Origin: Spirochaetia bacterium
Lineage (GTDB): Bacteria > Spirochaetota > Spirochaetia > UBA9216
DNA: 64,000 nucleotides
NCBI GenBank assembly: GCA_965140585.1
Contig: OZ223269.1
Coordinates: 1,152,001 to 1,216,000 of the forward strand
Direction of reading: 5' to 3'
Both the position numbers and the translations under genes were made by a program. Under the pieces are notes generated by a model that had not been told where the DNA came from, did not search any database, and saw nothing but the letters and a program-made list of their open reading frames with translations. Positions 3,094 through 17,912 of this stretch are shown piece by piece. Numbering within the stretch: the first letter of the stretch is position 1; each line of letters begins with the position of its first letter.

Positions 3094-4020
3094 ATGGCAA
3101 AATGGGGTGTAATAATAAATCCGGCAGCAGGCGGCGGACTTTCTGATGATAAACGTCAGATGATAATGAAAAAATTCAACAGAATAGATGATTCCGCATT
3201 GATTAAATTCACGGAGCAGCCCGGTCATGCAACCCAGCTGGCTGAGGAAATGATAAACAAGGGTATTACACTCATAGCAGTTGCAGGCGGAGACGGGACC
3301 TTTAATGAGGCAGCGAAGGCAGCTCTTGGTCATGATGTGACTCTCGGAGTCGTCCCCACAGGTACCGGAAATGATTTTATGCAGATCAGCGGATTCAGCG
3401 ACGTTTTTGAACAGTTTGAATGGGATACCTTCCTTAATGCTGATGTAAAAGCTATAGATGTCGGTGACTGCAACGGTAATCCCTTTTTCAATGGAATGGG
3501 AATAGGTTTCGACGCAGAAATGACAGCAGCCGTTACCGAAGACCGGCTAAGAACCGGACGTATTAGCAGGGCAAAGTATAACTACTACATAGTAAAAACA
3601 CTTCTTGGCTATAAAGAACGGGAACTGACTTTTACCAGAGACGGCAGTTCTACTACAGAAAAATGTTTTATGACCACCTGTTCTATCGGACGGCGTTTTG
3701 CAGGTAATTTCTTCCTGACCCCGAAAGCCATTGCTGACGACGGACTTCTGGATGTACTGCATATAAACCCTTTAAAACTGATGAAGCGAATGACTATTCT
3801 AACCCAAGTTCCCAAGGGCAGTCATATTACTGATCCGCTGATTCAGTACTTCAGGGCATCAACACTTAAACTGACTTTCTCACAGAAAGTAGCAGCCCAT
3901 CTTGACGGTGAGTTGATTTTTTCTGACTCCTTCGATATCAGAATAATACCAGGAGCTTTGAAGCTGATATACAACCCCGATGGAAACCATTATTTCAGTC
4001 AAAATTCAGGTAAAGCATAG
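3094..4020 (+). CDS. diacylglycerol/lipid kinase family protein (YegS/BmrU-like)
   Basis: NPAAGGG, GGDGT, GTGND, IDVG, DDGLLD and DGE motifs. Confidence 0.9.
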   Translation: MAKWGVIINPAAGGGLSDDKRQMIMKKFNRIDDSALIKFTEQPGHATQLAEEMINKGITLIAVAGGDGTFNEAAKAALGHDVTLGVVPTGTGNDFMQISGFSDVFEQFEWDTFLNADVKAIDVGDCNGNPFFNGMGIGFDAEMTAAVTEDRLRTGRISRAKYNYYIVKTLLGYKERELTFTRDGSSTTEKCFMTTCSIGRRFAGNFFLTPKAIADDGLLDVLHINPLKLMKRMTILTQVPKGSHITDPLIQYFRASTLKLTFSQKVAAHLDGELIFSDSFDIRIIPGALKLIYNPDGNHYFSQNSGKA

Positions 4021-5426
4021 GCACCGTAGAGGGAATAATAGTTTGTATAAAAGTCAATTGACTCCCTGTATTCCGAGATCCTGTCAGTATAGAGATTTAA
4101 TTCCTCTTCGAGCAAATCTGTTTCATCACCGGAGCCGGCTGTAAACTGGGTCTGCTTGATACCAATCTGAAGGTTATCGTTTTCCTGTTTAAGACGGTGA
4201 TATTCTATGTTCCGTCTGTTTAACTCAAGTTTGAGCAGTGTTTCGGAAATATACTGTCTGATGGAATCAACACCGTCTTCGTAATCATACATCGCTTTCT
4301 CTAGCTCATAGCTGTCTTTTTCAGCATCTGCAAGCGCACTGCCTCCGTCAAAAACATTTCCTGAAACCGCTATGGTGGATGTCAGCCCAAGTGAATCCTG
4401 ACCGAACCAATCCGTTTCGATAAATGGAAAGCGTGACCCCGAGTATGAAAGTTCAAAATGCAGCCCGATATCCGGTTTAAAACCTGTTGCGGCCCTGGTG
4501 ATATCGAGTTTTAATTCATTTATTCTTTGCACTTTGGTCAGCAGCTGAATATCAGGGTTGTTTGAAAGTGAGCTGTTCATACATTCATCAAGCCCGGGAA
4601 CCTCCAGACTGCTTATCTCACTGATGAAATCAAAATCAAAATCCCGGGCGGAAATATCCTTTATTCCCGAAAGCCTTGCCAGCTGAAGGAGGGTCTGTTC
4701 CCGCTGCTGTAAAAGCTGAGCCTCGGCAACACTAATCTCACTTGCTTTAATCCGGGCATCCAGCAAATCAGCATAGAGTATAAATCCGTTTTTGTATGAT
4801 TCATCCGCTATTTCTATCATCCTTTCAGAAACTGATTTCTGCATCTTCAGGGTATCTTCAATCATGCTTATGTAATAAAGAACGTATGAGTAAACATAAA
4901 GGCTTGTACGTATTTCATGCTGCTTCTTCTGAAGCTGCAGCCCGCTTGTTTCATTGATGGAACTGTACAGCAGCTCCATATTCTTTATTTTACCCCAGGT
5001 GAAAACGGGCTGATCGACAGTAAACTGAAAATTATAATGAGTATTTTCCGAACCCTTGTATATAACCATATCTTCAGCAGGAAGAAGAATATCGCTTCCT
5101 CCCATAGTATAGCTTCCCAGTTCTCCTGCCGTGAGAGTAATAGGCTCTATCATGGGATTGGTCATATAAGTCATGGTAGTTTGAAAATCTACCGTTGGAA
5201 AACGAGCGGCTTTTGCCTTTTTAAGCTCAGCTTCAGACTGCATCTTCTCAATTCCCAGCTGTATCAGGCTTATATTGTTCTCAACAGCCGATTTATAGAG
5301 GCTTTCAGGTGTTAGTTTCAAAGAATCCTCTGCAGCGAGCAGCTGAGTACAGCTAAAGAGAACTGCAGCAATAATTATTTTCAAAAATCCGGATATCTTT
5401 CGGGCAGCTCTTAGTTTTTTTCTCAT
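3999..5426 (-). CDS. TolC-family outer membrane efflux channel
   Basis: Signal peptide; two OEP halves (AVENN...AKAARFPTVDF, NNPDI...FKPDIGL); RND pump nearby. Confidence 0.85.
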   Translation of the reverse strand: MRKKLRAARKISGFLKIIIAAVLFSCTQLLAAEDSLKLTPESLYKSAVENNISLIQLGIEKMQSEAELKKAKAARFPTVDFQTTMTYMTNPMIEPITLTAGELGSYTMGGSDILLPAEDMVIYKGSENTHYNFQFTVDQPVFTWGKIKNMELLYSSINETSGLQLQKKQHEIRTSLYVYSYVLYYISMIEDTLKMQKSVSERMIEIADESYKNGFILYADLLDARIKASEISVAEAQLLQQREQTLLQLARLSGIKDISARDFDFDFISEISSLEVPGLDECMNSSLSNNPDIQLLTKVQRINELKLDITRAATGFKPDIGLHFELSYSGSRFPFIETDWFGQDSLGLTSTIAVSGNVFDGGSALADAEKDSYELEKAMYDYEDGVDSIRQYISETLLKLELNRRNIEYHRLKQENDNLQIGIKQTQFTAGSGDETDLLEEELNLYTDRISEYRESIDFYTNYYSLYGAYALPEF

Positions 5427-7216
5427 TGTTTAAGACTCACATAGTTTGAAGATCCCGCGGTAACATAGCCTTTCTCAAGATTAGCTGAATTTGCAATATC
5501 ATATGCGCCAGCCTCAATTTCAGCAGAGGTCGGTAGATACAGGTAGTATGAGGCACGGCTCTGGTTACCGGTGTAAGCTGTATCTGTCCATTCAAGACCG
5601 TCAAATGAGAAATGGCCCTTCTCATAATTATTGGTGTCTATTACCTGGTTTACAGTGGTATCAATATAATCAGGAGCATCTCCGTCTGCCGGAGCGGCAG
5701 TCAGAAGCGTTGCAGCATCAGGATTAAAAAACAGCCAGACTTCAACGCCGTTTACCTGCAGGGTTCCTGCAGCGTTCCAGACTTCTCCGGACAATGTTTC
5801 GCTGAACTCGGTCTGCTTGATAACTATGCTCCCCATATCAGTGCTCTGTTCATTGTGAAGGATATAATTGGTGTGAGCGGATGCATCATAATAGGCGGGT
5901 TCATAGTAGGCGTCAGACTCATCCGATTCTGTTGTCCCATTTCCATCCCGATCCCAGCCTCCGTCTGTCAACTTTGAATCTGTTGAATTATCTATAAGAA
6001 AGCTGTTCTTTGTAAAAACTATTCTCACGCAGCTGGTTTCAAGGTTGTTTGTTTCAGATGGACGTCTCACAAACTCGACAGTCTGAGAGTATTCGCCTGA
6101 ATCATCTGTAGTTACAGTATATGTGGGATTCTCCGGCCAGACGATATCGGCGTAAATTATACTTTCCGGATCTGATGAATCACTGTAGGTCCATTCTTCG
6201 GCTGCAAATATTTCTACCGTAACATTCGGTTCACCTTCGCCGGTGTTTGAATTAATTACAGTCCCGGAAATATCTGAAGTATTATACTCATCAGCAAGAG
6301 CGGTTGTTCCTGCATCATGATATGTTCCGGCTGATATCTCTGCAGTCTGCAGGTAGCCGATATTCTCATCATCATCAACAACCCCGTTAGCATCAACATC
6401 CCATCCGCCGTCGGTTATGTCGGCATCAGAGGCGTTCTCTGCTATGTAACCTCCGGCAGAGTAGGTAATTCTTACAATCACTGTACCGGCGTTATCGGTA
6501 GAAGAGGGCAGCATCTTATAAGAGATTTCTCTTGTCCATTCGCCGTTATCGTCTGTGGTCGAAGTATATGTCGGATTTTCAGCCCAGGTAAAACTGTCTT
6601 CATCCGTATTTACAGAACCTTCAGAATTGTACTCCCAGGACAGGGGCACCCATATATTCACTGTTGCATTTGCAATGTAATCGCCGGTTGCAGCTTCCGT
6701 AACAACTCCGGTTATTTCTGCTGTATTCATAATTTTATTAAGCGTAATCACGGGAATCCGGTTTGTAACATCAGAGACTATATACACCGGTGAAGGATTT
6801 GCCGCCAGGCCGTAGTTACGATGGTAGAATAGCAGAAAGACCTCTTTCCTGTCCCCGGACTTACCGTATTTCGGAAACAAATCATTCCAGATAAGGCCGT
6901 TGAAAGTGTAGTCGCCCTGATCATCTGTCACCGTCTTATTAAAGTAAAGGGGCTCAGTATCAGTCCGGTTCTCTGGCAGAAAACTTTCGTCAGACTGCCA
7001 GGCCTCAAGATCGGTAAGCTGATCGGCCTTATCAAGATAAAGATATACATAGGCATCACTTATTCCCGCGCCTGAATCTCCGTTTTCATACAATTCATAG
7101 TCTGAAATGTTTCCGTTTGCAGAACTCGTAAAGACAACAGAACAGCCTGTAAGAAGTAATGATGACATAATTAAAGTAAATGTTGAAAGCAGGATATTTT
7201 TTTTAAGTTTTATCAT
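5423..7216 (-). CDS. acidic multidomain lipoprotein with repeated carboxypeptidase-regulatory/prealbumin-like beta-sandwich domains
   Basis: Lipobox LLLTG-C after a basic plus hydrophobic leader; GGAG RBS before ATG 7216; repeated ITG.V...TG...NATV and T.TDD.G.(Y/W) motifs; ATGA overlap with the TolC start. Confidence 0.75.
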   Translation of the reverse strand: MIKLKKNILLSTFTLIMSSLLLTGCSVVFTSSANGNISDYELYENGDSGAGISDAYVYLYLDKADQLTDLEAWQSDESFLPENRTDTEPLYFNKTVTDDQGDYTFNGLIWNDLFPKYGKSGDRKEVFLLFYHRNYGLAANPSPVYIVSDVTNRIPVITLNKIMNTAEITGVVTEAATGDYIANATVNIWVPLSWEYNSEGSVNTDEDSFTWAENPTYTSTTDDNGEWTREISYKMLPSSTDNAGTVIVRITYSAGGYIAENASDADITDGGWDVDANGVVDDDENIGYLQTAEISAGTYHDAGTTALADEYNTSDISGTVINSNTGEGEPNVTVEIFAAEEWTYSDSSDPESIIYADIVWPENPTYTVTTDDSGEYSQTVEFVRRPSETNNLETSCVRIVFTKNSFLIDNSTDSKLTDGGWDRDGNGTTESDESDAYYEPAYYDASAHTNYILHNEQSTDMGSIVIKQTEFSETLSGEVWNAAGTLQVNGVEVWLFFNPDAATLLTAAPADGDAPDYIDTTVNQVIDTNNYEKGHFSFDGLEWTDTAYTGNQSRASYYLYLPTSAEIEAGAYDIANSANLEKGYVTAGSSNYVSLKQ

Positions 7217-7232
7217 ATATAAAGTCTCCAAA

Positions 7233-7250
7233 AAAGAATGCTCGTTCTTT
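7233..7250. promoter_or_regulatory. putative TetR operator 1 (AAAGAAT-GCTC-GTTCTTT)
   Basis: Inverted repeat just downstream of the TTGAAT-17-TATATT promoter of the lipoprotein-TolC transcript; near copy at 7956-7973. Confidence 0.72.
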
Positions 7251-7256
7251 AATTAG

Positions 7257-7285
7257 AATATACATACCGATAGTTTGAAATTCAA
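7257..7285 (-). promoter_or_regulatory. sigma70-type promoter of lipoprotein-TolC
   Basis: TTGAAT (7285-7280), 17 nt, TATATT (7262-7257). Confidence 0.65.
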
Positions 7286-7301
7286 TAGGGATGAGCCATT
7301 T

Positions 7302-7904
7302 TTACTGATTGATTTCGATTCTGTCTACAAGACTTTTTAAAATGATTTCGTTCAGCACTTTTTTGACATCACGATAATCCATAAGTTCACCGCTGGCAAG
7401 CGAGATCCTGATTGCGTTGGCTATACCTGTTGCAACTATGGTTACGAATACAAAGAACTCCCTGTGATTTAGTTTAAGCATTCCATAGATACTTTCGGCA
7501 TCTCCCTGATGAAATCTTTCTGCGATTATTCCAGCCATCCGCTGATAAAAATTCTGAAGTTTATTCTGAAAACTAAGCTCATTGAAGATAACAGTAACGA
7601 TTTTGTTGTGATTTTTGATAAGCTGCATAATATTTTCAGTAAAACGCAGGGCTTTTTCCTGATTACTCATCTCTATATCAATATCCTGAAAGAGCTCTAT
7701 CCGCAGTATTTCAATACCGCCATCGAGGAGGGCATCGAATATTTCTTCCTTATTGGCAAAGTAAAGATAAATTGTTCCGACAGACAGACCCGATTCCGCA
7801 ACAATATCCTGGATGGATGTGGCATGAAATCCTTTTCTTGCAAAAAGTTCAGTTGCCGTCTTTATTATTATTTCTTTCTTTTTTTCATCTCTCTGTCTTG
7901 CCAT
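7302..7904 (-). CDS. TetR/AcrR family transcriptional regulator
   Basis: N-terminal HTH ATELFARKGFHATSIQDIV...GTIYLYFANKEEIF. Confidence 0.95.
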   Translation of the reverse strand: MARQRDEKKKEIIIKTATELFARKGFHATSIQDIVAESGLSVGTIYLYFANKEEIFDALLDGGIEILRIELFQDIDIEMSNQEKALRFTENIMQLIKNHNKIVTVIFNELSFQNKLQNFYQRMAGIIAERFHQGDAESIYGMLKLNHREFFVFVTIVATGIANAIRISLASGELMDYRDVKKVLNEIILKSLVDRIEINQ

Positions 7905-7910
7905 AAAATT

Positions 7911-7954
7911 AGTATCACAAATATATTGAAAAAAATCAATAAAATTCTTATATT
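7911..7954. promoter_or_regulatory. overlapping divergent promoters for tetR (-) and the MFP-RND genes (+), both apparently leaderless
   Basis: Plus: TTGAAA (7926-31), 17 nt, TATATT (7949-54), 6 nt, ATG. Minus: TTGATT (7939-34), 17 nt, GATACT (7916-11, with extended TG), 6 nt, ATG. No SD on either side. Confidence 0.68.
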
Positions 7955-7955
7955 A

Positions 7956-7973
7956 AAAGAATGAATATTCTTT
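7956..7973. promoter_or_regulatory. putative TetR operator 2 (AAAGAAT-GAAT-ATTCTTT), overlapping the MFP start codon
   Basis: Perfect 7-bp arms with a 4-nt spacer, same geometry as operator 1. Confidence 0.72.
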
Positions 7974-9022
7974 CTAAAAAGAAATTTGCTGTAATTATCA
8001 CCATCGCTGTACTTATAGCGGTTGTAGTTCTACTTTCTGCTGTCACCGTATTTGCCAGAAAGGAAATTCCCCAGGATTCCGAAGCTCCCGCTGGAACCCC
8101 GGTAAAAACAATCAAGCCGCAGCTAGGGTCTCTGGAAAAAGAGCTTAAACTTACCGGTTACGTAGAATCAAATGAAATCGTAACAGTTCTTCCTTTTGTT
8201 TCAGGAACGCTTGAAAGCCTTACCAAGAAAGCGGGGGATGCGGTTGAAAAAGGTGAGGTCATAGCAGAGATTGATTCAAAATCCTATGACCTTCAGCTAA
8301 AGCAGGCCGAGGCAGCATATTTTGGAATACAGTCTTCCTACGAAAGAATAGAACAGATGTATAATTCAGGTGCTGCAACCAGACAGAATTATGATCAAAC
8401 TAAATCCCAGTATGATGCATATAAATCCCAGTACGAACTTGCACAGCTCCAGGTAAGCTACACGCATATCGAAGCACCCATCAGCGGTACAGTTCTGAAA
8501 GTACATACAACTGAGGGAGCAATGGCAGCTCCCGAAATTCCGGTTTTGACAATTGGAAATCTTAAAAACCTCATAGTAAAATTGAGGGTGCCTGAGAAGT
8601 ATTATGAACTTTTTTCTAAAAATCCTGATATGAAGGTTACTGTCTCCAAGGACGGCCTGACAGCTTTTCATGCAGCAGAGATCCACGAAATATCACCTAT
8701 GATAAATGCTCAGACAAGAAACTTCGATATTGTTGCAGGAATAAGTGATAAGGATGCGAAGCTCCGTCCGGGAATGTTCGTCTATTGTATATTTGAAACC
8801 GACAGGCAGGAAGACCTGTGGTATCTTCCGCATTCCGTCTACGGTCCGGGTAATTCACTCTGGATAGTAAATCATACTGATGAAACTGCAGAAAAAATCA
8901 GTTTTGATGAGATTTATTCCAATAACCGTTTTTTTGCTATTCCGGAAAAATATTCAAACAGTGACTTTATTATCGAAGGACAGAGCTTTTTGGTTGAAGG
9001 CAGTCCGGTAAGTATCCGATAG
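7961..9022 (+). CDS. RND efflux periplasmic adaptor (membrane fusion protein)
   Basis: N-terminal TM; lipoyl halves (VSGTL...GDAVEKGEVIAEID, IEAPISGTV); LRPGMF motif. Confidence 0.93.
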   Translation: MNILSKKKFAVIITIAVLIAVVVLLSAVTVFARKEIPQDSEAPAGTPVKTIKPQLGSLEKELKLTGYVESNEIVTVLPFVSGTLESLTKKAGDAVEKGEVIAEIDSKSYDLQLKQAEAAYFGIQSSYERIEQMYNSGAATRQNYDQTKSQYDAYKSQYELAQLQVSYTHIEAPISGTVLKVHTTEGAMAAPEIPVLTIGNLKNLIVKLRVPEKYYELFSKNPDMKVTVSKDGLTAFHAAEIHEISPMINAQTRNFDIVAGISDKDAKLRPGMFVYCIFETDRQEDLWYLPHSVYGPGNSLWIVNHTDETAEKISFDEIYSNNRFFAIPEKYSNSDFIIEGQSFLVEGSPVSIR

Positions 9023-9031
9023 GGGCTGCGG

Positions 9032-12000
9032 ATGAAACTTGCAGATTATTCGATTAAACATCCCGCAGTTATTACTATAATACTGATTGCAGTAGTCTTC
9101 TTCGGTTTCTTTGCGCTGCAGGGTTCCAATCAGGAAGCCTTTCCGGCAATAGGGATGCCAGGAGCTTCCGTGGTAACTATATACCCCGGTGTCGATGCTA
9201 AGAGTGTCGAACGCGATGTCACAGCTCCTCTGGAAGACTCTTTAATAAGCCTTTCGGGACTCTCAAATCTGACCTCGTCATCGAGTGACTCAGTGTCATC
9301 AGTCGTAATAGAATTCGATGAAAATGTAGACGCCTACGCTAAACTGCCGGAGATAAGAGAGCTTGTTAACGCTGCTATGGATGAACTGCCGGAAGGGATA
9401 TCCGGCGATCCTGTTATTATAGTTCATGATATGGCTGCAATTCTTCCAATCTATTCCGTAATGGTCAAAAGCAGGCTGGAGCCGGAAGTTCTTACGGACT
9501 TTATAGAAAATGAGTTCAGTCCCCAGATTACCAGAATAGACGGTGTTTCAAACATTCAGATAAAAGGCGGAGTACAGAAGCAGCTTGAGATAAAACTGCA
9601 TATAAATGAACTTGAGCCCCGCGGACTTTCAGTCCTCGATATCTACCAGCTTCTTCAGTATTCAAACATTTCTTTTCCCGCTGGTGAGATCAGTTACAAG
9701 GATGAGGCGCTGAATCTCCGTACATCGGGTGAATTTTCAAACATAGACGAGATACAGAACCTCGTGGTAGGTCATGTTGATGATTCTTATGTATACCTCA
9801 AGGATATTGCGGATATCGAAATAAATTTTGCTGAACCGGATTTTTATATCCGCTCCGACAGTCAGGCTGTTATGGCTATCGATGTTATGAAACGCCAGGA
9901 AGGCAATACCCTGGATATTGTAGACAGTCTAAAGCGTATTGAGGCGGAAACTGAAGAAAAATACTCTGGCCTGATTGAGTTCTATACAATAGCCGATGAA
10001 AAGGTGACCACCGAGCTTACAATTAATACAGTACTCAAATCAGCCTTTACCGGAATAGCACTTGCCATCCTTATTATCTATATCTTTCTGCATAATATCC
10101 GCAGTACCATTATCATCGGACTTTCAATTCCACTTTCTATGCTGATCACTGTAATAGGAATGTACCTGACCGGAACAACAATGAACATGCTCAGTCTGTC
10201 CGGCCTTACAGTAGCGATTGGTATGATCGTGGACAGTTCCATCGTTGTTCTTGAAAACACCAATCGCCACTTTGCAGACTCAGGCGATCCGGCCGGTTCA
10301 GCCTCGATCGGAGCCGGAGAAGTGGGGGGAGCAGTACTGGCATCGGCAACCACATCAATCTGCGTATTTCTGCCGATGATCTTTCTATCCGGCTTGATTG
10401 GCATAATCATGAAAGGATTATCCCTTACGATCGTTATTGCACTGGGAGCGTCGGCTCTGGTTTCTGTTATAGTAGTTCCATACCTGTCGGCACAGTTTCT
10501 TAAAGAGGACAAACCGAGATTTAAGTCAACAGTACTGTTCCACAGATTAATCGACGGAGCTCTGGATAAGCTCACTTCCGGATACAAAAAAATACTTGCG
10601 GGGGCTATAAAACGGCCGCTGAGAGTACTTATAGTTGCCGTAGTGGTGCTTGTGCTGACGGTAATGCTTATATCATTTATGGGAATAAGTTTTATACCTC
10701 CGTCCGATACCGGTGAGTTTGAAATACATATCAATACTCCTGAATCATACAGCCTGCTGCAGACAAGAGACAAAATTGATGAAATAGACAGGCTTGTTAC
10801 TGAACTTACGCCCGAGATTGAAACTTCCATTTACTACGTCGGTGCTTCAAGCACACTCAGTTCCGCATCAAAGAAAAATGTTGCTATTGGAAGAATAAGG
10901 CTCATCGGAAATCAGCACCGGGACAGAACCGTTCACGAAATAGTAGACTCACTTCAGACCGCCCTGAATAATGAAATCACTGATATCGATGTTATTGTTG
11001 TAAACGGAGGTTTCGATTCACTTCTGGGTATGGCAACCGGCGGTCAGGGTTTTAAAGTCAGGCTTTACGGAAACAGCCTCGATCAGGTTATGAAGTCTGC
11101 TGAAATAGTTGACGGGCAGCTGGACAGAGACCCGGAAGTTTTTAAAACGACCATGAGTATGAACTACGGAAAGGAGCAGCTTGTATCCAACCTTATCCTT
11201 GATTATCTGGGTTCAACCGGAATCACGCCATATGAAGCAGCCATTACATCAAGAATTTTATTTAACGGCATGGAAACCGGTAAATACCGGACCGATGAAG
11301 GGAATATTCCAATCCTGCTGTCTTCCGGGGTTGCCGGGTCTGATATCGATGAAAACACTATAAATATGATTACTCTCAAAACACCTTCAGGAGATCCGAT
11401 TGCACTCTCAAGTCTCACTGAGATCGACAGAGAGCCGGCAGTATCCTCAATTGCCAAGGAGAACAGGAATATATCCATCACTATCACAGGATACCTCACA
11501 ACCCAGGATCAGATGGGTGTAACCGGAAGAATGTCAGAGTACATGAACAATGTTGAGCTTCCCTACGGAGTTTCATGGGAAATTGCCGGAACCTCAAGTC
11601 TTATCGGCTCCTCATTCAAATCACTTTTCATGATACTCGGTATCGCTGTCTTTCTTGTCTACATGGTAATGGTTATTCAGTTCGAAAGATTCGTTCAGCC
11701 GTTTATAATAATGATTTCAATTCCATTCACTCTTATTGGTGTGGTTATAGGTCTCATAGCCTTCGGATCTACGATATCCATCATTCCGATGCTGGGTATG
11801 ATATCACTGGCCGGAATGGTTGTTAACAACGGTATTGTAATGATTGACTACCTTAACCTGCTTAGAAAAAAAGGCACTGAACTCGAAGAAGCGGTTCTCG
11901 AAGGCTGTTCATCAAGGTTGAAGCCTATACTTATGACTACGCTGACCACTTTTTTCGGTGTTCTTCCGATGGCCTTCGCCTTTGGGAACGGCTCAGAGGT

Positions 12001-12151
12001 TTATGCTCCGCTTGGTCAGGCTATAGCAGGAGGACTGATAACATCAACGATTCTTACATTGATTCTGGTTCCGGTAATTTATACCCTGATTGAGAAAAGA
12101 CACATTAGACGTGATGGTTACGACAGGACACTATCCAGCGAATCGGTATGA
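9032..12151 (+). CDS. RND efflux permease (AcrB/AcrD/AcrF family)
   Basis: 1039 aa; IKHP N-terminus, YPGVDA..VE..VT.PLE, GMIVDSSIVVLEN and RLKPILMTTLTT motifs. Confidence 0.95.
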   Translation: MKLADYSIKHPAVITIILIAVVFFGFFALQGSNQEAFPAIGMPGASVVTIYPGVDAKSVERDVTAPLEDSLISLSGLSNLTSSSSDSVSSVVIEFDENVDAYAKLPEIRELVNAAMDELPEGISGDPVIIVHDMAAILPIYSVMVKSRLEPEVLTDFIENEFSPQITRIDGVSNIQIKGGVQKQLEIKLHINELEPRGLSVLDIYQLLQYSNISFPAGEISYKDEALNLRTSGEFSNIDEIQNLVVGHVDDSYVYLKDIADIEINFAEPDFYIRSDSQAVMAIDVMKRQEGNTLDIVDSLKRIEAETEEKYSGLIEFYTIADEKVTTELTINTVLKSAFTGIALAILIIYIFLHNIRSTIIIGLSIPLSMLITVIGMYLTGTTMNMLSLSGLTVAIGMIVDSSIVVLENTNRHFADSGDPAGSASIGAGEVGGAVLASATTSICVFLPMIFLSGLIGIIMKGLSLTIVIALGASALVSVIVVPYLSAQFLKEDKPRFKSTVLFHRLIDGALDKLTSGYKKILAGAIKRPLRVLIVAVVVLVLTVMLISFMGISFIPPSDTGEFEIHINTPESYSLLQTRDKIDEIDRLVTELTPEIETSIYYVGASSTLSSASKKNVAIGRIRLIGNQHRDRTVHEIVDSLQTALNNEITDIDVIVVNGGFDSLLGMATGGQGFKVRLYGNSLDQVMKSAEIVDGQLDRDPEVFKTTMSMNYGKEQLVSNLILDYLGSTGITPYEAAITSRILFNGMETGKYRTDEGNIPILLSSGVAGSDIDENTINMITLKTPSGDPIALSSLTEIDREPAVSSIAKENRNISITITGYLTTQDQMGVTGRMSEYMNNVELPYGVSWEIAGTSSLIGSSFKSLFMILGIAVFLVYMVMVIQFERFVQPFIIMISIPFTLIGVVIGLIAFGSTISIIPMLGMISLAGMVVNNGIVMIDYLNLLRKKGTELEEAVLEGCSSRLKPILMTTLTTFFGVLPMAFAFGNGSEVYAPLGQAIAGGLITSTILTLILVPVIYTLIEKRHIRRDGYDRTLSSESV

Positions 12152-12156
12152 GATTT

Positions 12157-12191
12157 AAACAACTATAAATCTGAATGATTTATAGTTGTTT
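12157..12191. terminator. probable bidirectional terminator hairpin between convergent genes
   Basis: Perfect 15-bp inverted repeat AAACAACTATAAATC-tgaat-GATTTATAGTTGTTT. Confidence 0.7.
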
Positions 12192-12803
12192 TCAGTAAGT
12201 ATCAGGGTTCATATTCTCGAAGGCTTCCCGAACTTCGTACAAACGCTTCAGATCGAGTTCTATAAATTCCTTATAATCAATCTCGCCCTCATCAATTTTA
12301 ATCCGTTCATCTTCCCAGTATTCCATGCCCTCTATGTATATGTATGGCATGGCGTCAATCTCTGCTTTCATCTCAAGTACCTTATCCCAGTAATAGAGGG
12401 CGTTCTTATAGTACTTTTCAGCCATCTGCAGACTCTTGAGGTTTTCCTGTTTCCATGGATAGTTATAAAAGTATGCGTCGAATTTATCGTATTTAACGCC
12501 CAGAAGCCGCCACTGCTCTATGAGTTTCAGATATATATGCATAGTAAACATAAATCTGTAGCGCTCCCATTCCTTCTCGGTTTTGATAGTGGCCAGAGCA
12601 TTCAGCGGATTAACAAAGGGTCTCTTTAAGGCATTTTCCAGGTAGTATATATTTTCAGCGCTGTCTTCCGGATACTGGATATAGTGACTGTGATATAGCT
12701 TATAAAACTGTTCTGCATAAAGAATCTTATAGCCAAAAGTACTCTGAACTGTAAACAGAGCAAAAAAGAGAATAATTACTGCAGGTTTAAATAAATGCCT
12801 CAC
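12192..12803 (-). CDS. exported helical hypothetical protein, Tyr-rich
   Basis: 203-aa ORF with a signal peptide, 7 nt downstream of tmk. Confidence 0.75.
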   Translation of the reverse strand: MRHLFKPAVIILFFALFTVQSTFGYKILYAEQFYKLYHSHYIQYPEDSAENIYYLENALKRPFVNPLNALATIKTEKEWERYRFMFTMHIYLKLIEQWRLLGVKYDKFDAYFYNYPWKQENLKSLQMAEKYYKNALYYWDKVLEMKAEIDAMPYIYIEGMEYWEDERIKIDEGEIDYKEFIELDLKRLYEVREAFENMNPDTY

Positions 12804-12810
12804 ATGAAGC

Positions 12811-13431
12811 TTATCGGCTTATAGCCGCAATTATTTCAGAACATATTTCATCAGGTTTCTTTGTGCCGTCAATCCTCAGCAGTTTCATACCGGTATTCGC
12901 ATAAAGGCTGAACGCTCTGTTGTAATTTTCAATAATCCGGTTCTGTATAGAGAGGGCATCAAACAGCTCAATTTTATCACGCTTGTGCATTCTCTGACTG
13001 CATACTTCCGCCGAAAGGTCGAGAAAAATTGTGTATTCAGGTATCGGGTATGGATTGAGATCATGAACAAGATCAAAATCACAGCCAAGGCTCTGGTAAG
13101 CAAGCGAAGAGAACAGATATCTGTCGGTGAGAACAGTACTACCGTCTTCAAGCATTTTAAGAATTCCGGAATCCGGGTTATACAGATGCTCATACCTGTC
13201 TGCGGAAAAGAGTCTTGCCAGGGTTTCGGGTTCTGCTTTTATCTCTTTAAGCAGAATCTGTCGTATCAGTTTACCTGAAGGCATCGGTGTAGGTTCACAA
13301 GTTGAATACAGTGCTTTATCATTGTCCGCAAACCATTTTTTCAGCATATTAAGCTGTGTTGTGGTTCCGCTGCCGTCAAGGCCCTCAAGGGCAATAAAAT
13401 TTTGTAAAACTTCAGGTTTCTCTCTCATCAC
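12811..13431 (-). CDS. tmk: thymidylate (dTMP) kinase
   Basis: FIALEGLDGSGTTTQ P-loop; TDRYLFSSLAYQ motif. Confidence 0.95.
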   Translation of the reverse strand: MMREKPEVLQNFIALEGLDGSGTTTQLNMLKKWFADNDKALYSTCEPTPMPSGKLIRQILLKEIKAEPETLARLFSADRYEHLYNPDSGILKMLEDGSTVLTDRYLFSSLAYQSLGCDFDLVHDLNPYPIPEYTIFLDLSAEVCSQRMHKRDKIELFDALSIQNRIIENYNRAFSLYANTGMKLLRIDGTKKPDEICSEIIAAISR

Positions 13432-13574: not shown

Positions 13575-16500
13575 CTGAAACCTTCTGCAAAAAGGTCAAA
13601 AACAATTCAAATATTATCTATAATCTCAGTATGTGCGGTTCTGCTGCCGCTTGTTATGTTTCCGGTTCAGAGGAAATTTGTAACATATCTCGAGGATGTG
13701 AAACTGAGGTTTATCAATACTCTTGAACTGAGACTGAACCGTAATATTGCATATGAAAGCATCTCGCCTTCAATCTTCCGGGCTTTTGAAATTCAGGGAT
13801 TTAAAATATTCGCTGAAGATAATTCAGATGAAGTACTCCTTGAAATAGGCCGGCTGAGGCTTGATTTCAGCCTGCTTAAGCTTCTGCAGAATAATCCTCT
13901 CGGTGCGTTCAGGGGATTGACCATAATCAACTCAAAACTCAGCTTTGATACAGCTGAAGATGCCGAGCTGCTCGATCTATTTAAATCAGCAGACTCATCC
14001 CGGGAGAGGGGAATGCAAACTTCCGGCACTTTCGATCTTCCGGACAGCTTTTATCTCAGGGGAAAAAACCTCAATTTAAACCTCAAGTCCCCGGATTATT
14101 CGGGCAGTTTCAGTAAACTGTATTTTACCCTTAAAAATTCATCATCTGATGATTTTGCTCTTACAGCACGCTCTGAAGCCTCTCTGTTTTTCTATGAAAC
14201 ACCTCTGCCTACCGATGATAACTCAATCTCGGTTGACACCTCACTAAATGCATCCGGAAGGATAGATCGAAATCTCAACTGGGTGGAGCTTGTATTAAAA
14301 AGCCGGAATCTTGATTCCGATCTTATATCTGCTGAACGTTTAAGTGTCAATTTCAGATTCACCGCACCCGGAGTCTATCAGCTTACTAAAATCGGGGACA
14401 AAACACCTGCGGATATTAATCTCAAACTTGATACGGAAACACACAGTGTTCGTTTGGAACTGGATGCTGATGATTTTATTTTCAGCGAATATTTCAGCCC
14501 TGGCAGACACACCAGGCAGTACACTGATTTTCTTGGACTTTCAGTTACCGGAAATGCTGCACTTGACTACGATTACGCTGAAAGAAAACTCGAATATCAT
14601 GGAGCATTGGCAGTAGATACATATCCCGATTTTATTATTCCGGACTCTCACATTGAAGCATCGTTTTCCGGAAATAATATGGAACTTAATATTGCTGATT
14701 CCCGCTTTGAAAATGATACCCTTGCCGGAGGCTTCAATGGAAGGATAGGTTTCACTGATGGGCTGCCTGAAATAAACGGGAATGCGGCTGTCGAAAATTT
14801 GATAATTAACAATGCAGAAATCTCGACTGAGATCAGCATAGTCACAGATAATATCGGAAAATACACTGTAAATTCCGACAGCCTTAGTGCCGGAAACCTC
14901 AAGCTGCGTAAACTCAAGCTGAGTATTCTTCCTTATCAGGATAATTTCGACTTTCTTCTCGAGGCTGAACCGGAATCTGATGATGGCATAAATGAATCGC
15001 TTTATATCGAAGGTGTATATCAGTCCGGTAAGGATCAGTATCTTCAGACGGTTGTGTCTACTGACAATCTCAGTATCAGGCCCTTAATGTCGCTTATCCC
15101 TCCCGGTATTAGCCTTCCTGTCGATCTGCTTGATTTCAGGCTGAGTTCCGAACTTTTCTTTTCAGGAGATCTCAAGCAGATGGCCTTCGCCGCATCAGAA
15201 TTTCTTCTCACCAGCCGTACCGCGCCGGAAAACAAAATCGAACTTCAGCTTTCCGGAAATAATCGGCGTATCAGCCTGACAAACCTTAATATAATCTGGA
15301 ATCAGAATATTATCAGCGGACAGGTATCTGCAGAAATAGACAGTGATAAGACCATCATGCTGAATACTGGCCTGAGTCTGAATGATCTGAAATATGATAT
15401 CGGAGGGGTATACAGTATATCAAGCGGAGCTTTAAGCCTTACCGGTTCTCACGGCTTTCAGCTGAGTCTGCTTGAACTTCCGCTTACAGGATATACCTTT
15501 CAGCTAAAGACCCGGGAGCTGCCTTTTTATATAGGAAAAGACAGGCCTTCAGGAATAAGCGCAGATATTTCAGGATATTATGATTCACCTGAAAACTGGA
15601 AAATCTTTTTAAATAAAACCTCTATATCATCACTGCCTTTATCAGGATATACAGGAAACCTGCTGCTCAGTGCGGTTATAGGAAACGATGGCGGCCAGCT
15701 GAGCAGCCTTAAATACAGTGATTCATATTCGGAGCTTAATGGCAGCGGATTTGTCAGAATTACCGACTTAAACGATGGACTCAGCGGAAGTGCATATCTC
15801 CAGCTGGCTGACCGTCGATCGGATGAGAACTACTCTCTATTATTTGACATGCTTAAGGGTGAAGCAGGCGGAACTCTTGATATAAACAATTTCAAGCTTG
15901 AAAGACTGTCGGGATTCCTTCCTGTGGAGGGAGACATATCTGGTACAGCGGTAATTTCAGGCAGCCTTGCAAGTCCGGAACTCAGTCTCGAACTGACCAC
16001 AGGAGATGCAGAGTTCACCGGACGCCCCCTGGATCTTAATACTTCGCTTCAGTACAAGGACCTTGTTTTTGAAGCAGGCCTTATAGATCTCACCGCAGGA
16101 AGCGTATCTCTTAAACAAGGCAGAGGACTGCTTGATTTCAGTACCGGAAGGCATCAGCTGACAGGGAATCTGACTGCAGAACTGGCTCCGCTTTCACTTG
16201 GGACTCAGATCAGCATTACAGGAAAATCAGTCCCTATAGAGAATATTGGCGATATTGCTTCAATCATCAAAAACGACATGAATTTGCAACTTAACCTCGA
16301 AGAACTTCTCTATAATAAACTGCCCAGAGATGACCTGTATTTTACAATAGTTCATTCAGAGGGAACCTCCATCCTGACAGGAGGGCCTGAAAACTCTGTA
16401 TCAGGCCGTTATAATGACGACGGAACATTCACTATTAATATTGCCGACCCGGTTCCTCTGACATTCGTAGCCAAAGGCTCCATGAACCGAGGAAATATTG

Positions 16501-17912
16501 ATGCAAGGATCAGCGGCATTGAATATGTTTTTGATAAACTTGAAATTCCATTCTTTTACTTTGAAAAGGGAAGTATTACCGGTGATCTTAAAATTCTGGG
16601 ACCGTTTAACGATCCGGATTTTTTCGGACAGCTCGACTTGAATAACCTTGATTTCAGACCGCCCATTGTACAGGAGAAAACCAAAAACCTTTCCACATCT
16701 TTCTTTTTCAGCGGAAAATCAGTTACTCTCCCGTCCACCCGCATAATCACCGAAAACGGAATAGTAATGATGACTATTGACGGTGTTATGGAACGCTGGC
16801 TGCCGAGAAACTATGATTTTAATATGTCTGTTCCTGAAGGACGTGGAATATCTGCAATGTTTTATCGGGCGCCATTTTATGTTTCAGGTTTTGCAGAAGG
16901 CAATCTGCGCATATACGGCGACTTTCTCCGTATGAACGTCAGCGGTGATATCAAGGCAATAGATGCGACTATAATGTTCAGCAATAGTCTCGGGGACGGA
17001 AAGATGGGTATGCCGACCGAGCAGATTGGAGCCGATTTAAAAATCAGGGTAGGAGAAAACAACCAGCTGATGTGGCCCAGTCAGACGCTGCCGATCGTAA
17101 GAGCCTACATAAAACCCGAAGATGAGTTCAGTCTTAGATATGATTCAATTCCCAACGAGCTTATTCTTGACGGAGCTCTTGCACTTAAGGGCGGTGAAAT
17201 ATTCTATTTCGAAAGAAACTTCTATATCAAGGAAGGCTCGATCAGATTTACCAACGATATGGTCTATGCAATGGATCCGCTTCTAAGCGCAAGGGCGGAA
17301 ATAAGGGATGTAAACGCTGCAGGTGAACTTGTAAAGATTTATCTTATAGTGGACAAATCACCGCTAAGCTCTTTTGTGCCGCGTTTTGAATCAGACCCTG
17401 CGATGTCAACCAACGAAATAATCTCCCTGCTCGGTGGAAATATCCTTGATACTATCGGAGCTTCGGACGGTGATTTAGGCGAAACAGCAGCTTTTGTAAC
17501 AGATCTGGCAACCCAGTACGCGCTTAAGGGTATCGAAAACGAACTAAAGAAAACACTGGGTCTTGATCTGCTGTCAATCCGTACATCCTTTATCGGAAAC
17601 ATAATTGAAGACAAACTTCAGAGCAGTATTGTAAATCCTGATGACAATTTCGCCAAATATCTTGACAATACGACCTTATTCTTGGGAAAGTACTTCACAG
17701 ATGATATATTCTTACAGGGATTGTTTCAGTTTGATCTTTATAACGATTCGGGTTATTCTGACGGATTGAATCTTAACCTTGACAGTGAGATAAAACTGGA
17801 GTGGGAAGGACCGGTTGCAAATATCGAATTCAGCCTCTTTCCCGACTTTGTGGATCCTGCTGCAGGATTGAAAAAAACGAGTGTCGGATTATCCTGGCAT
17901 TTCTCTTATTAA
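13575..17912 (+). CDS. tamB: TamB/AsmA-like translocation and assembly module protein
   Basis: About 1445 aa, beta-rich; C-terminal DUF490-like region (GSIRF...DPLL..RAE, FESDP.MS..EI.SLLG, LGKY); directly upstream of bamA. Start extended to an in-frame CTG with GAGGT RBS (start position uncertain). Confidence 0.85.
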   Translation: MKPSAKRSKTIQILSIISVCAVLLPLVMFPVQRKFVTYLEDVKLRFINTLELRLNRNIAYESISPSIFRAFEIQGFKIFAEDNSDEVLLEIGRLRLDFSLLKLLQNNPLGAFRGLTIINSKLSFDTAEDAELLDLFKSADSSRERGMQTSGTFDLPDSFYLRGKNLNLNLKSPDYSGSFSKLYFTLKNSSSDDFALTARSEASLFFYETPLPTDDNSISVDTSLNASGRIDRNLNWVELVLKSRNLDSDLISAERLSVNFRFTAPGVYQLTKIGDKTPADINLKLDTETHSVRLELDADDFIFSEYFSPGRHTRQYTDFLGLSVTGNAALDYDYAERKLEYHGALAVDTYPDFIIPDSHIEASFSGNNMELNIADSRFENDTLAGGFNGRIGFTDGLPEINGNAAVENLIINNAEISTEISIVTDNIGKYTVNSDSLSAGNLKLRKLKLSILPYQDNFDFLLEAEPESDDGINESLYIEGVYQSGKDQYLQTVVSTDNLSIRPLMSLIPPGISLPVDLLDFRLSSELFFSGDLKQMAFAASEFLLTSRTAPENKIELQLSGNNRRISLTNLNIIWNQNIISGQVSAEIDSDKTIMLNTGLSLNDLKYDIGGVYSISSGALSLTGSHGFQLSLLELPLTGYTFQLKTRELPFYIGKDRPSGISADISGYYDSPENWKIFLNKTSISSLPLSGYTGNLLLSAVIGNDGGQLSSLKYSDSYSELNGSGFVRITDLNDGLSGSAYLQLADRRSDENYSLLFDMLKGEAGGTLDINNFKLERLSGFLPVEGDISGTAVISGSLASPELSLELTTGDAEFTGRPLDLNTSLQYKDLVFEAGLIDLTAGSVSLKQGRGLLDFSTGRHQLTGNLTAELAPLSLGTQISITGKSVPIENIGDIASIIKNDMNLQLNLEELLYNKLPRDDLYFTIVHSEGTSILTGGPENSVSGRYNDDGTFTINIADPVPLTFVAKGSMNRGNIDARISGIEYVFDKLEIPFFYFEKGSITGDLKILGPFNDPDFFGQLDLNNLDFRPPIVQEKTKNLSTSFFFSGKSVTLPSTRIITENGIVMMTIDGVMERWLPRNYDFNMSVPEGRGISAMFYRAPFYVSGFAEGNLRIYGDFLRMNVSGDIKAIDATIMFSNSLGDGKMGMPTEQIGADLKIRVGENNQLMWPSQTLPIVRAYIKPEDEFSLRYDSIPNELILDGALALKGGEIFYFERNFYIKEGSIRFTNDMVYAMDPLLSARAEIRDVNAAGELVKIYLIVDKSPLSSFVPRFESDPAMSTNEIISLLGGNILDTIGASDGDLGETAAFVTDLATQYALKGIENELKKTLGLDLLSIRTSFIGNIIEDKLQSSIVNPDDNFAKYLDNTTLFLGKYFTDDIFLQGLFQFDLYNDSGYSDGLNLNLDSEIKLEWEGPVANIEFSLFPDFVDPAAGLKKTSVGLSWHFSY

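Follow-up and report, generated by a model that had tools for sequence, protein, structure and literature searches.

Organization of the pump locus

The window analysed here (the whole stretch of 64,000 nucleotides from contig OZ223269.1 of a Spirochaetia bacterium) encodes, at positions 3999–12151, a resistance–nodulation–division (RND) efflux pump together with a large lipoprotein of an unnamed family, which is a candidate fourth component of the pump and the subject of this study. According to the open reading frame (ORF) listing and a Pfam scan, the locus contains genes for a TolC family outer-membrane factor (3999–5426), the lipoprotein (5423–7216) and a TetR-family regulator (7302–7904), all on the minus strand, and for a membrane fusion protein (MFP, the periplasmic adaptor; 7961–9022) and an RND permease (9032–12151), both on the plus strand. 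These five genes, their strands and a lipoprotein of about 597 amino acids were as claimed in a preliminary description of the same DNA.

The permease (1039 amino acids) matches ACR_tran (PF00873; E = 4.5e-218) over model positions 2–1020 of 1021 and is thus a full-length, 12-transmembrane (TM) transporter of the AcrB/AcrD/AcrF type, with a score against the NCBIfam model RND_permease_2 (610 bits) that falls under the strict cut-off of that model (1250). The MFP (353 amino acids), whose gene is separated from the RND gene by only 9 nt, matches HlyD_D23 (E = 4.9e-23) and TIGR01730 (RND_mfp; 163.8 bits, cut-off 94.9), and its N-terminus reads as a TM anchor lacking a lipobox cysteine. TolC (475 amino acids, with a signal peptide) contains two OEP repeats (PF02321; E = 5.8e-35), so that an RND permease, an adjoining MFP and an outer-membrane factor with two such repeats, i.e. 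all parts of a tripartite RND pump, are found at the locus. The regulator (200 amino acids) carries a TetR_N domain at residues 13–59 (PF00440; E = 1.6e-18), all its NCBIfam matches being under their cut-offs. The stop codon of the lipoprotein gene overlaps the tolC start, as had been noted before, in an ATGA (5423–5426, minus strand, read in the sequence as caATGAga), which suggests translational coupling of the two genes.

A multidomain beta-sandwich lipoprotein

The frame of the lipoprotein gene (5423–7231, minus strand) opens at a TTG (7231), the likely start being the ATG at 7216, which follows a GGAG ribosome-binding site and yields a protein of 597 amino acids. Its N-terminus reads MIKLKKNILLSTFTLIMSSLLLTG-C. 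The signal peptide MIKLKKNILLSTFTLIMSSLLLTGC (amino acids 1–24; 7145–7216, minus strand) ends in a canonical lipobox LLTGC (L-T-G-C), the codon of the putatively lipidated Cys25 lying at 7142–7144, and this cysteine is invariant in two alignments of homologues (22/22 and 20/20). Bacterial lipoprotein signals comprise a positively charged n-region, a hydrophobic h-region and a lipobox [LVI][ASTVI][GAS]C; all three are present here and the protein is predicted to be a Sec/signal peptidase II (SPII) lipoprotein. It has no Pfam match above cut-off and no NCBIfam match, its score against CarboxypepD_reg (PF13620) being 19.2 bits, under the gathering score of 32.3, while some homologues do have a precomputed PF13620 match.

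The full-length AlphaFold2 (AF2) model, built on a 22-sequence alignment (pLDDT 86), consists of four transthyretin/CnaB-like beta-sandwiches, and Foldseek matches it to tandem CnaB, pilin and SdrD-B stalks (E = 8e-15 to 6fwv). The N-terminal domain (N-domain; amino acids 25–163; 6728–7144, minus strand) is the signature of the family. Modelled alone (pLDDT 89.6, pTM 0.84), it forms a transthyretin/carboxypeptidase-D-regulatory-like sandwich with a helical insert, for which VIA-align gave as best match the carboxypeptidase-D transthyretin-like domain 5aq0_B (Z 9.8, rmsd 2.0 over 82 residues), followed by 1qmu_A (Z 9.2) and the CnaB2 domain 8bdw_A (Z 8.8), values only modestly above the background of Z 7–8 stated for the tool; by this comparison the domain superimposes on solved members of the seven-stranded beta-sandwich fold. 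Invariant residues concentrate in C25–D39 and in a W110...G118-K-x-x-D122 loop. The motif CSVVFT comes directly after the lipidation site and the first beta-strand begins about five residues on, hence the N-domain must lie against a membrane surface.

The tandem sandwiches D2 (amino acids 164–310) and D3 (311–469), together encoded at 5810–6727 (minus strand), are a duplication (38% identity, E = 1e-30 by BLASTP). Each contains an acidic DGGWDxDxNG motif (at amino acids 273 and 422) that possibly binds Ca2+, and one or both are absent from shorter homologues. The C-terminal sandwich D4 (amino acids 470–597; 5426–5809, minus strand), delimited from the AF2 secondary structure, is kept in most homologues. 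The mature protein is very acidic (pI 4.05) and no enzyme-like or ligand-binding fold was recognised in it by Pfam, NCBIfam or structural comparisons.

A word-indexed search returned 31 homologues, all unnamed or 'hypothetical' and, where a taxon label was present, assigned to Spirochaetales or Spirochaetia. An N-domain profile run against 1.84 billion proteins matched 262 representative clusters, 208 of them at E ≤ 1e-10, and in these family proteins of 113–953 amino acids the N-domain is always N-terminal, right behind the signal peptide. All ten members looked up were again 'hypothetical' or unnamed, one being labelled as a Bacteroidetes metagenome-assembled genome (MAG) on a 5.6-kb contig, and a Pfam scan of 14 long or short members found neither an OEP fusion nor any other informative domain. 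A protein-atlas search yielded only unnamed Spirochaetota clusters and generic CarboxypepD_reg clusters (scores 0.88–0.92). Natural forms of 150–180 amino acids consist of the N-domain alone; one of them (L049, G374:C34:4573–5070; 165 amino acids) is encoded by a gene overlapping the RND gene by 4 nt and tolC by 1 nt. In another homologue (L039, G024:C6; frame at 8052–9311 in oriented coordinates) a single in-frame TAG splits the frame into pieces of 246 and 114 amino acids, which a pseudogene, read-through or an error of sequencing could explain. Searches of the open-access literature (PMC, bioRxiv) turned up nothing on this family or on RND operons with a beta-sandwich lipoprotein.

Conservation of the gene neighbourhood

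In a survey of 401 Spirochaetota genomes the full-length lipoprotein profile had matches in 22, and loci from 20 of these were compared, together with a locus of a near-identical MAG (L001), the sole one obtained from a single-protein search of genome contigs. With the five proteins of the window as tblastn queries, MFP, RND and TolC were found in 21/21 loci and the lipoprotein in 19; when the frames were read, a lipobox ORF was seen between the RND and TolC genes of every one of the 20 compared loci, including two missed by tblastn and the interrupted frame of L039. The more sensitive N-domain profile gave 22 matches in 21 of the 401 genomes, all at the same loci and with no stray or unlinked copies. 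Two genomes yielded less complete loci: in G380, where the locus is known from profile matches only, the N-domain match begins 155 nt past the RND match, and G082 retains only a C-terminal fragment at a contig end. All four metagenome loci (L052–L055) were likewise linked to RND/TolC genes, with RND–lipoprotein–TolC–TetR in L053 and L054, lipoprotein–TolC in L055, and in L052 the same divergent layout as in the window, its contig ending within the lipoprotein gene. Homologues mostly unlinked to such genes would have spoken against the lipoprotein as a pump component, as proposed in the preliminary description, and the reverse was observed.

The usual order is MFP–RND–lipoprotein–TolC on one strand. 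If each gene is taken from its first in-frame start codon, the start of the lipoprotein gene overlaps or adjoins the RND stop in 12/20 loci, and an overlap of its own stop with the tolC start is seen in about 10/20 as well as in the window. Wherever the contig allows this to be checked (the window, L001, the 20 loci, L053, L054 and L055), the lipoprotein gene lies directly upstream of tolC. Where the operon is split (the window, L001 and L052), the lipoprotein gene has been parted from MFP–RND, and in the window and L001 it has remained directly upstream of tolC.

The genome containing the window also harbours, as one of the 20 compared loci, a second, paralogous MFP–RND–lipoprotein–TolC operon (L032, G000:C7:604232–610937), whose 416-amino-acid lipoprotein lacks one middle repeat; its RND and the N-terminal part of its lipoprotein are 45% and 36% identical, respectively, to those of the window.

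The RND subfamily and loss of the lipoprotein

Five full RND pumps are encoded in this genome, two of them with a lipoprotein, and the two lipoprotein-linked permeases, related to one another as given above, are only 25–30% identical to the other three. The window RND is 36–49% identical to lipoprotein-linked RNDs elsewhere. Among the RND matches in the 401 genomes, a top group (≥ 530 bits, ≥ 33% identity) was clearly apart from the rest, and in a quick IQ-TREE phylogeny of 39 RNDs (L053 was left out owing to its partial RND) lipoprotein-bearing sequences were basal and spread across several families and classes, with lipoprotein-less ones nested among them. By these sequence comparisons the lipoprotein-linked RND genes form one subfamily. 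The four-gene module looks ancestral to this clade and the lipoprotein looks to have been lost repeatedly, so that the lipoprotein would need the pump while the pump would not strictly depend on the lipoprotein. None of the six subfamily loci without an adjacent tolC (L056, L059, L060, L061, L064 and L068) carries the lipoprotein.

Two of these six (L059, G308:C7; L060, G386:C8) are second subfamily MFP–RND pairs in genomes that also hold the four-gene module, and here MFP–RND is followed by a 273-amino-acid secreted protein (signal peptide, then QTPLNRLDSLYFDGD...) in place of lipoprotein–TolC. Such pairs may borrow the lipoprotein–TolC encoded elsewhere in the genome. Four other lipoprotein-less loci encode RND and TolC in a single frame of 1,556–1,598 amino acids (L058, G398:C11; L062, G185:C58; L066, G235:C1; and L063, G075:C4, the last cut by a contig end), the joint being a signal-peptide-like hydrophobic segment, e.g. 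KKKKASGTKNLLLLLIPVLFLY....

Candidate operators and promoters

An 18-bp palindrome, AAAGAATnnnnnTTCTTT, is present once before the lipoprotein gene and once before the MFP gene, in each case just downstream of a −10-like TATATT. The first copy (AAAGAATGCTCGTTCTTT, 7233–7250) lies between the −10-like hexamer (7262–7257, minus strand) and the ribosome-binding site of the lipoprotein gene, while the second (AAAGAATGAATATTCTTT, 7956–7973) begins 2 bases past its hexamer (7949–7954) and covers the MFP ATG; both are candidate TetR operators. The pattern AAAGAATN5TTCTTT with at most one mismatch had five strand-matches in the window, i.e. both palindromes on both strands plus 1296–1313 (one mismatch), against a mean of 0.72 in shuffled sequences, none of which (0/100) reached five. 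The palindrome claimed in the preliminary description is thus present before both putative transcription units. In the whole genome (4.85 Mb) a looser form, AAAGAA[TC]N4[GA]TTCTTT, occurs three times, and the two copies at the pump locus are the only intergenic ones. The third (AAAGAATGTAAATTCTTT, G000:C6:861970), within a 400-amino-acid ORF (861433–862632), is probably a chance match. Comparison with a 93%-identical MAG, in which palindrome 1 differs at one arm position, was too close to inform (95% and 99% identity of the intergenic regions).

Both intergenic regions also contain a promoter-like site: TTGAAT-17-TATATT (7257–7285, minus strand; 9/12 consensus matches) in the 85-bp tetR–lipoprotein spacer and TTGAAA-17-TATATT (7926–7954, plus strand; 10/12) in the 56-bp divergent tetR/MFP spacer. 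Promoter-like sites were not enriched over shuffles at 3800–12900 (21 found, 21.3 expected). A separate promoter for the lipoprotein–tolC pair, which the preliminary description had taken as given, is plausible from its consensus match, such matches being no commoner than expected by chance. The tetR–lipoprotein spacer yielded no terminator-like site, so that read-through from tetR is also possible. Given the two palindromes, co-regulation of both transcription units by the adjacent TetR is plausible. A search for sequencing runs listed no RNA run containing this stretch; three runs, all of one study, were listed, and the stretch was present in one of them.

Features of the TolC component

In a profile alignment the TolC component matches E. 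coli TolC at E = 1.6e-20. Among 18 aligned TolC homologues, 14 have no cysteine near the end of the signal peptide and, as the MFP is TM-anchored, the lipoprotein would be the only consistently lipidated product of the locus. In outer-membrane factors, conservation is as a rule lowest in the extracellular loops. The first loop of the subfamily TolCs is about 28 residues longer than that of E. coli TolC and contains conserved residues (NP..PI.I..G.LGS...P.ED), and the second carries an invariant RFPxxExxW.

Possible role of the lipoprotein

We consider it about an even chance (probability roughly 0.5) that the 597-amino-acid protein serves as an accessory lipoprotein dedicated to a single ancient subfamily of spirochaetal RND–MFP–TolC pumps, probably docked on TolC and co-regulated by TetR. 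Its gene lies beside tolC wherever the contig allows a view of both, which makes the protein a probable accessory component of the pump that has not been described before. In the mechanism we propose, the lipoprotein would be made together with the pump and bound to it through the N-domain, most likely on TolC, on the side of the outer membrane that faces the periplasm. A lipid anchor would thereby be contributed to an exit duct that mostly seems to lack one, and the lipoprotein would aid the positioning or assembly of this duct, as proposed for YbjP with E. coli TolC. As the partner, TolC is favoured over RND by the location of the lipoprotein gene right before tolC in all loci that can be checked, by its staying with tolC in the window and L001 when the operon was split, by its absence from subfamily loci that have no adjacent tolC, and by the scarcity of TolCs with a cysteine near the signal-peptide end beside a TM-anchored MFP. 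The variable acidic rod, made of one to several beta-sandwich domains, would project from this docking site, and would not be the core function because some homologues are an N-domain alone. In the genome of the window the ancestral operon would have been split, the lipoprotein gene remaining with tolC behind tetR, and as both new units carry the same palindrome after a −10-like hexamer, the TetR repressor would probably switch all five genes.

Several observations weigh against this proposal. Thirteen loci of the top RND group lack the lipoprotein: apart from the six without an adjacent tolC and one with a divergent tolC (L057), these comprise two plain MFP–RND–TolC operons (L065 and L067) and the four in-frame RND–TolC fusions (L058, L062, L063 and L066). 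The starred branches of the RND tree force at least seven label changes, and with 13 such loci any role of the lipoprotein would therefore be auxiliary or conditional. The earlier idea of a dedicated fourth part is supported in so far as all N-domain homologues found lie in RND/TolC loci; an obligatory part it is not. The argument from the operon split comes from a single lineage. Four of the 18 TolCs (those of the window, L036, L038 and L050) do have a cysteine near the end of the signal peptide and might be lipidated, that of the window being at residue 26 (LFSC) and not conserved in homologues. In E. coli an aspartate at position +2 after the lipidated cysteine causes retention in the inner membrane, although spirochaetal sorting rules differ; the lipoproteins of L035 and L037 have an aspartate there and by this rule would be retained. 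Four TolC positions (E127, R332, P334 and W340) are invariant in the 18 lipoprotein-linked TolCs and changed in three fusion TolCs, and by alignment to E. coli TolC they map to the extracellular loops, not to the periplasmic face, a location that fits a surface-located partner better; these fusion TolCs come from only two genera, and the lipoprotein-less L065 and L067 retain P334 and W340. Finally, conserved gene order is a sign of functional dependence, not of contact.

These same observations bear on the alternatives. The lipoprotein could be a periplasmic partner of RND or MFP, held at the inner membrane by a lipid inserted into the outer leaflet of that membrane. Its N-domain would contact either the porter/docking domain of RND or the MFP domain nearest the membrane and modulate assembly or substrate entry, and its rod would run along the MFP/TolC tunnel. 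The ancestral order, in which the lipoprotein gene directly follows the RND gene with the frequent stop/start contact described above, would suit such a partner, as would the aspartate at +2 in L035 and L037 and the resemblance to carboxypeptidase-regulatory-like domains, which SusC transporters carry as N-terminal extensions in the periplasm (Z 8.0 to 9hfj_A and 6.8 to 6ytc); AcrZ, MexG and CusF, too, act at the inner membrane or in the periplasm (PMC4338810). We regard this as unlikely, since the lipoprotein gene was parted from MFP–RND at the operon split and stayed with tolC in the window and L001, since MFP–RND loci of the subfamily without an adjacent tolC are devoid of it, and since most homologues have a serine at +2. 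A similarly small probability is given to a protein linked to the pump in function without being a subunit of it, i.e. a co-expressed envelope lipoprotein that binds or sequesters an amphiphile or cation, or shields the envelope, with no stable contact to the pump. From synteny alone a subunit and a pathway partner are indistinguishable, the pump subfamily lacks the lipoprotein in several lineages, the number of domains varies freely among members of 113–953 amino acids, and the acidic DGGWDxDxNG motifs suggest cation binding. Yet the fixed position between RND and tolC, with frequent overlaps on both sides over large evolutionary distances, is typical of subunits of a complex, no ligand-binding or enzymatic fold was recognised, and it is the N-terminal segment next to the membrane, rather than the acidic repeats, that is most strongly conserved.

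Surface exposure is common among spirochaetal lipoproteins, and the protein could be docked on the enlarged loops at the outer opening of TolC, where it would act as a cap, a chimney or a stalk like that of an adhesin, comparable to the SusD lids on SusC. The enlarged, conserved first loop and the invariant motif in the second would then find an explanation, the loop positions named above being the only ones that never vary in lipoprotein-linked TolCs yet differ in the fusion-type TolCs without a lipoprotein; the fold is like that of Gram-positive surface adhesin/pilin stalks and Ca2+-binding SdrD B repeats, and the protein is very acidic. This placement nevertheless seems very unlikely to us: the loops are conserved also in the lipoprotein-less L065 and L067 and may have a function for TolC itself, the differences in the loops derive from three sequences that are close relatives, and the AF2 models contain no disordered tether behind the cysteine, such as Borrelia surface lipoproteins use for export. 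Slightly less doubtful, but still improbable, is a broader and more speculative idea, that the lipoprotein forms an extension of the exit duct absent from described tripartite pumps, either as a surface cap or chimney on the enlarged TolC loops, resembling a SusD-like lid, or as a periplasmic strut, stiffened by Ca2+, that keeps TolC aligned with MFP–RND across a periplasm containing the flagellum. It would make for a true four-component RND architecture, ancestral in Spirochaetota. A 'ruler' spanning the periplasm as the core function was ruled out by single-domain forms such as the 165-amino-acid L049. The least probable of all is cargo secreted through the RND–TolC machine, a role put forward in the preliminary description, which the conserved pump linkage alone would favour. 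AcrB-type RND pumps move small molecules, and TolC-dependent export of proteins uses ABC-type type I secretion systems with C-terminal signals. We rejected this reading on these grounds and on the Sec/SPII signal, by which the protein would cross the inner membrane via Sec and then become lipid-anchored; in addition, a folded four-domain rod of about 60 kDa would not fit the RND–TolC path.

Comparison with known systems

Tripartite RND pumps have been treated as three-part machines, and a lipoprotein partner of TolC was found only in 2026, its role being as yet unclear. This is YbjP (DUF3828), a TolC-binding outer-membrane lipoprotein of E. coli (eLife 2026; PMC13082787, PMC13095208). It is reported to form a 3:3 complex at the equatorial domain of TolC while its lipid sits in the outer membrane (PMC13095208), and is proposed to supply in trans a lipid anchor to the unlipidated E. 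coli TolC, the argument being that such an anchor can come in cis or in trans (PMC13082787). The preliminary description had recognised no characterised pump with a partner of this kind; YbjP now provides a TolC-binding lipoprotein, but it is small, has an unrelated fold, and its gene lies apart from those of the pump. Both lipoproteins are tied to a TolC-type exit duct without an N-terminal lipid of its own (here, probably mostly without), both are lineage-restricted, and both are dispensable for basic efflux, YbjP by experiment and the family described here by repeated evolutionary loss. In contrast to YbjP, the lipoprotein of the window is made of four transthyretin/CnaB-like beta-sandwiches, is about three times larger with a variable number of domains, is encoded beside tolC in the pump operon, and is tied to one RND subfamily instead of a shared TolC, its own binding to TolC being a proposal; no Pfam match to DUF3828 was found in it at E ≤ 0.01, its predicted fold being an all-beta sandwich. 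If docked on TolC, it would be a functional analogue of YbjP.

CusF is a small periplasmic metallochaperone. The fourth components described in PMC4338810 are those of AcrZ–AcrAB–TolC, MexGHI–OpmD, CusF–CusCBA and YknWXYZ, AcrZ being an inner-membrane peptide of about 50 amino acids and MexG a proposed 4-TM membrane protein. Like AcrZ, MexG, CusF and YknW, the lipoprotein is an additional protein that is encoded in the operon or co-regulated with it and, although not absolutely needed, is conserved alongside a particular transporter; unlike it, none of these is a large multidomain lipoprotein, and it matched none of the AcrZ, MexG and CusF families in Pfam or NCBIfam. With the lipidated outer-membrane factors OprM, CusC and CmeC it would share a lipid anchor at the inner leaflet beside the exit duct, except that the anchor would sit on a separate polypeptide also bearing a long beta-sandwich rod. 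The fold of all four domains is that of CarboxypepD_reg (PF13620)/transthyretin-like domains, CnaB, SdrD_B, the SusC extension and pilin/adhesin stalks, whereas the N-domain differs from CarboxypepD_reg/CnaB in its helical insert and own conserved loop, and in being part of a lipoprotein encoded in a pump operon. What would be new here is an accessory lipoprotein family for a four-component RND pump, none of these described fourth components, YbjP included, being a multidomain beta-sandwich lipoprotein encoded between the RND and outer-membrane factor genes.

The 262 unannotated clusters of this family were represented, in every case examined and in several Spirochaetota families and classes, by genes between those for RND and TolC, a genetic linkage to the pump far stronger than that of YbjP. 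If pump binding proves true, partnerships between lipoproteins and exit ducts would have arisen repeatedly and independently, and natural lipoprotein-bearing, lipoprotein-less and single-domain forms would be at hand to study anchoring, assembly, positioning or gating. A family of hypothetical proteins, including those of host-associated treponeme-like genomes, in which outer-membrane components are few and sought after, would thereby gain a name and a context.

Neighbouring genes

Directly 3′ of the RND gene and on the opposite strand lies an ORF of 203 amino acids (12192–12803, minus strand) with no Pfam or NCBIfam match. A TamB-like protein of 1,418 amino acids (PF04357; E = 2.2e-23) is encoded at 13656–17912 (plus strand), 1.5 kb downstream of the RND gene. 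This proximity to the pump, for which no conservation was seen, may be coincidence; TAM has been implicated in the assembly of TolC (PMC13082787).

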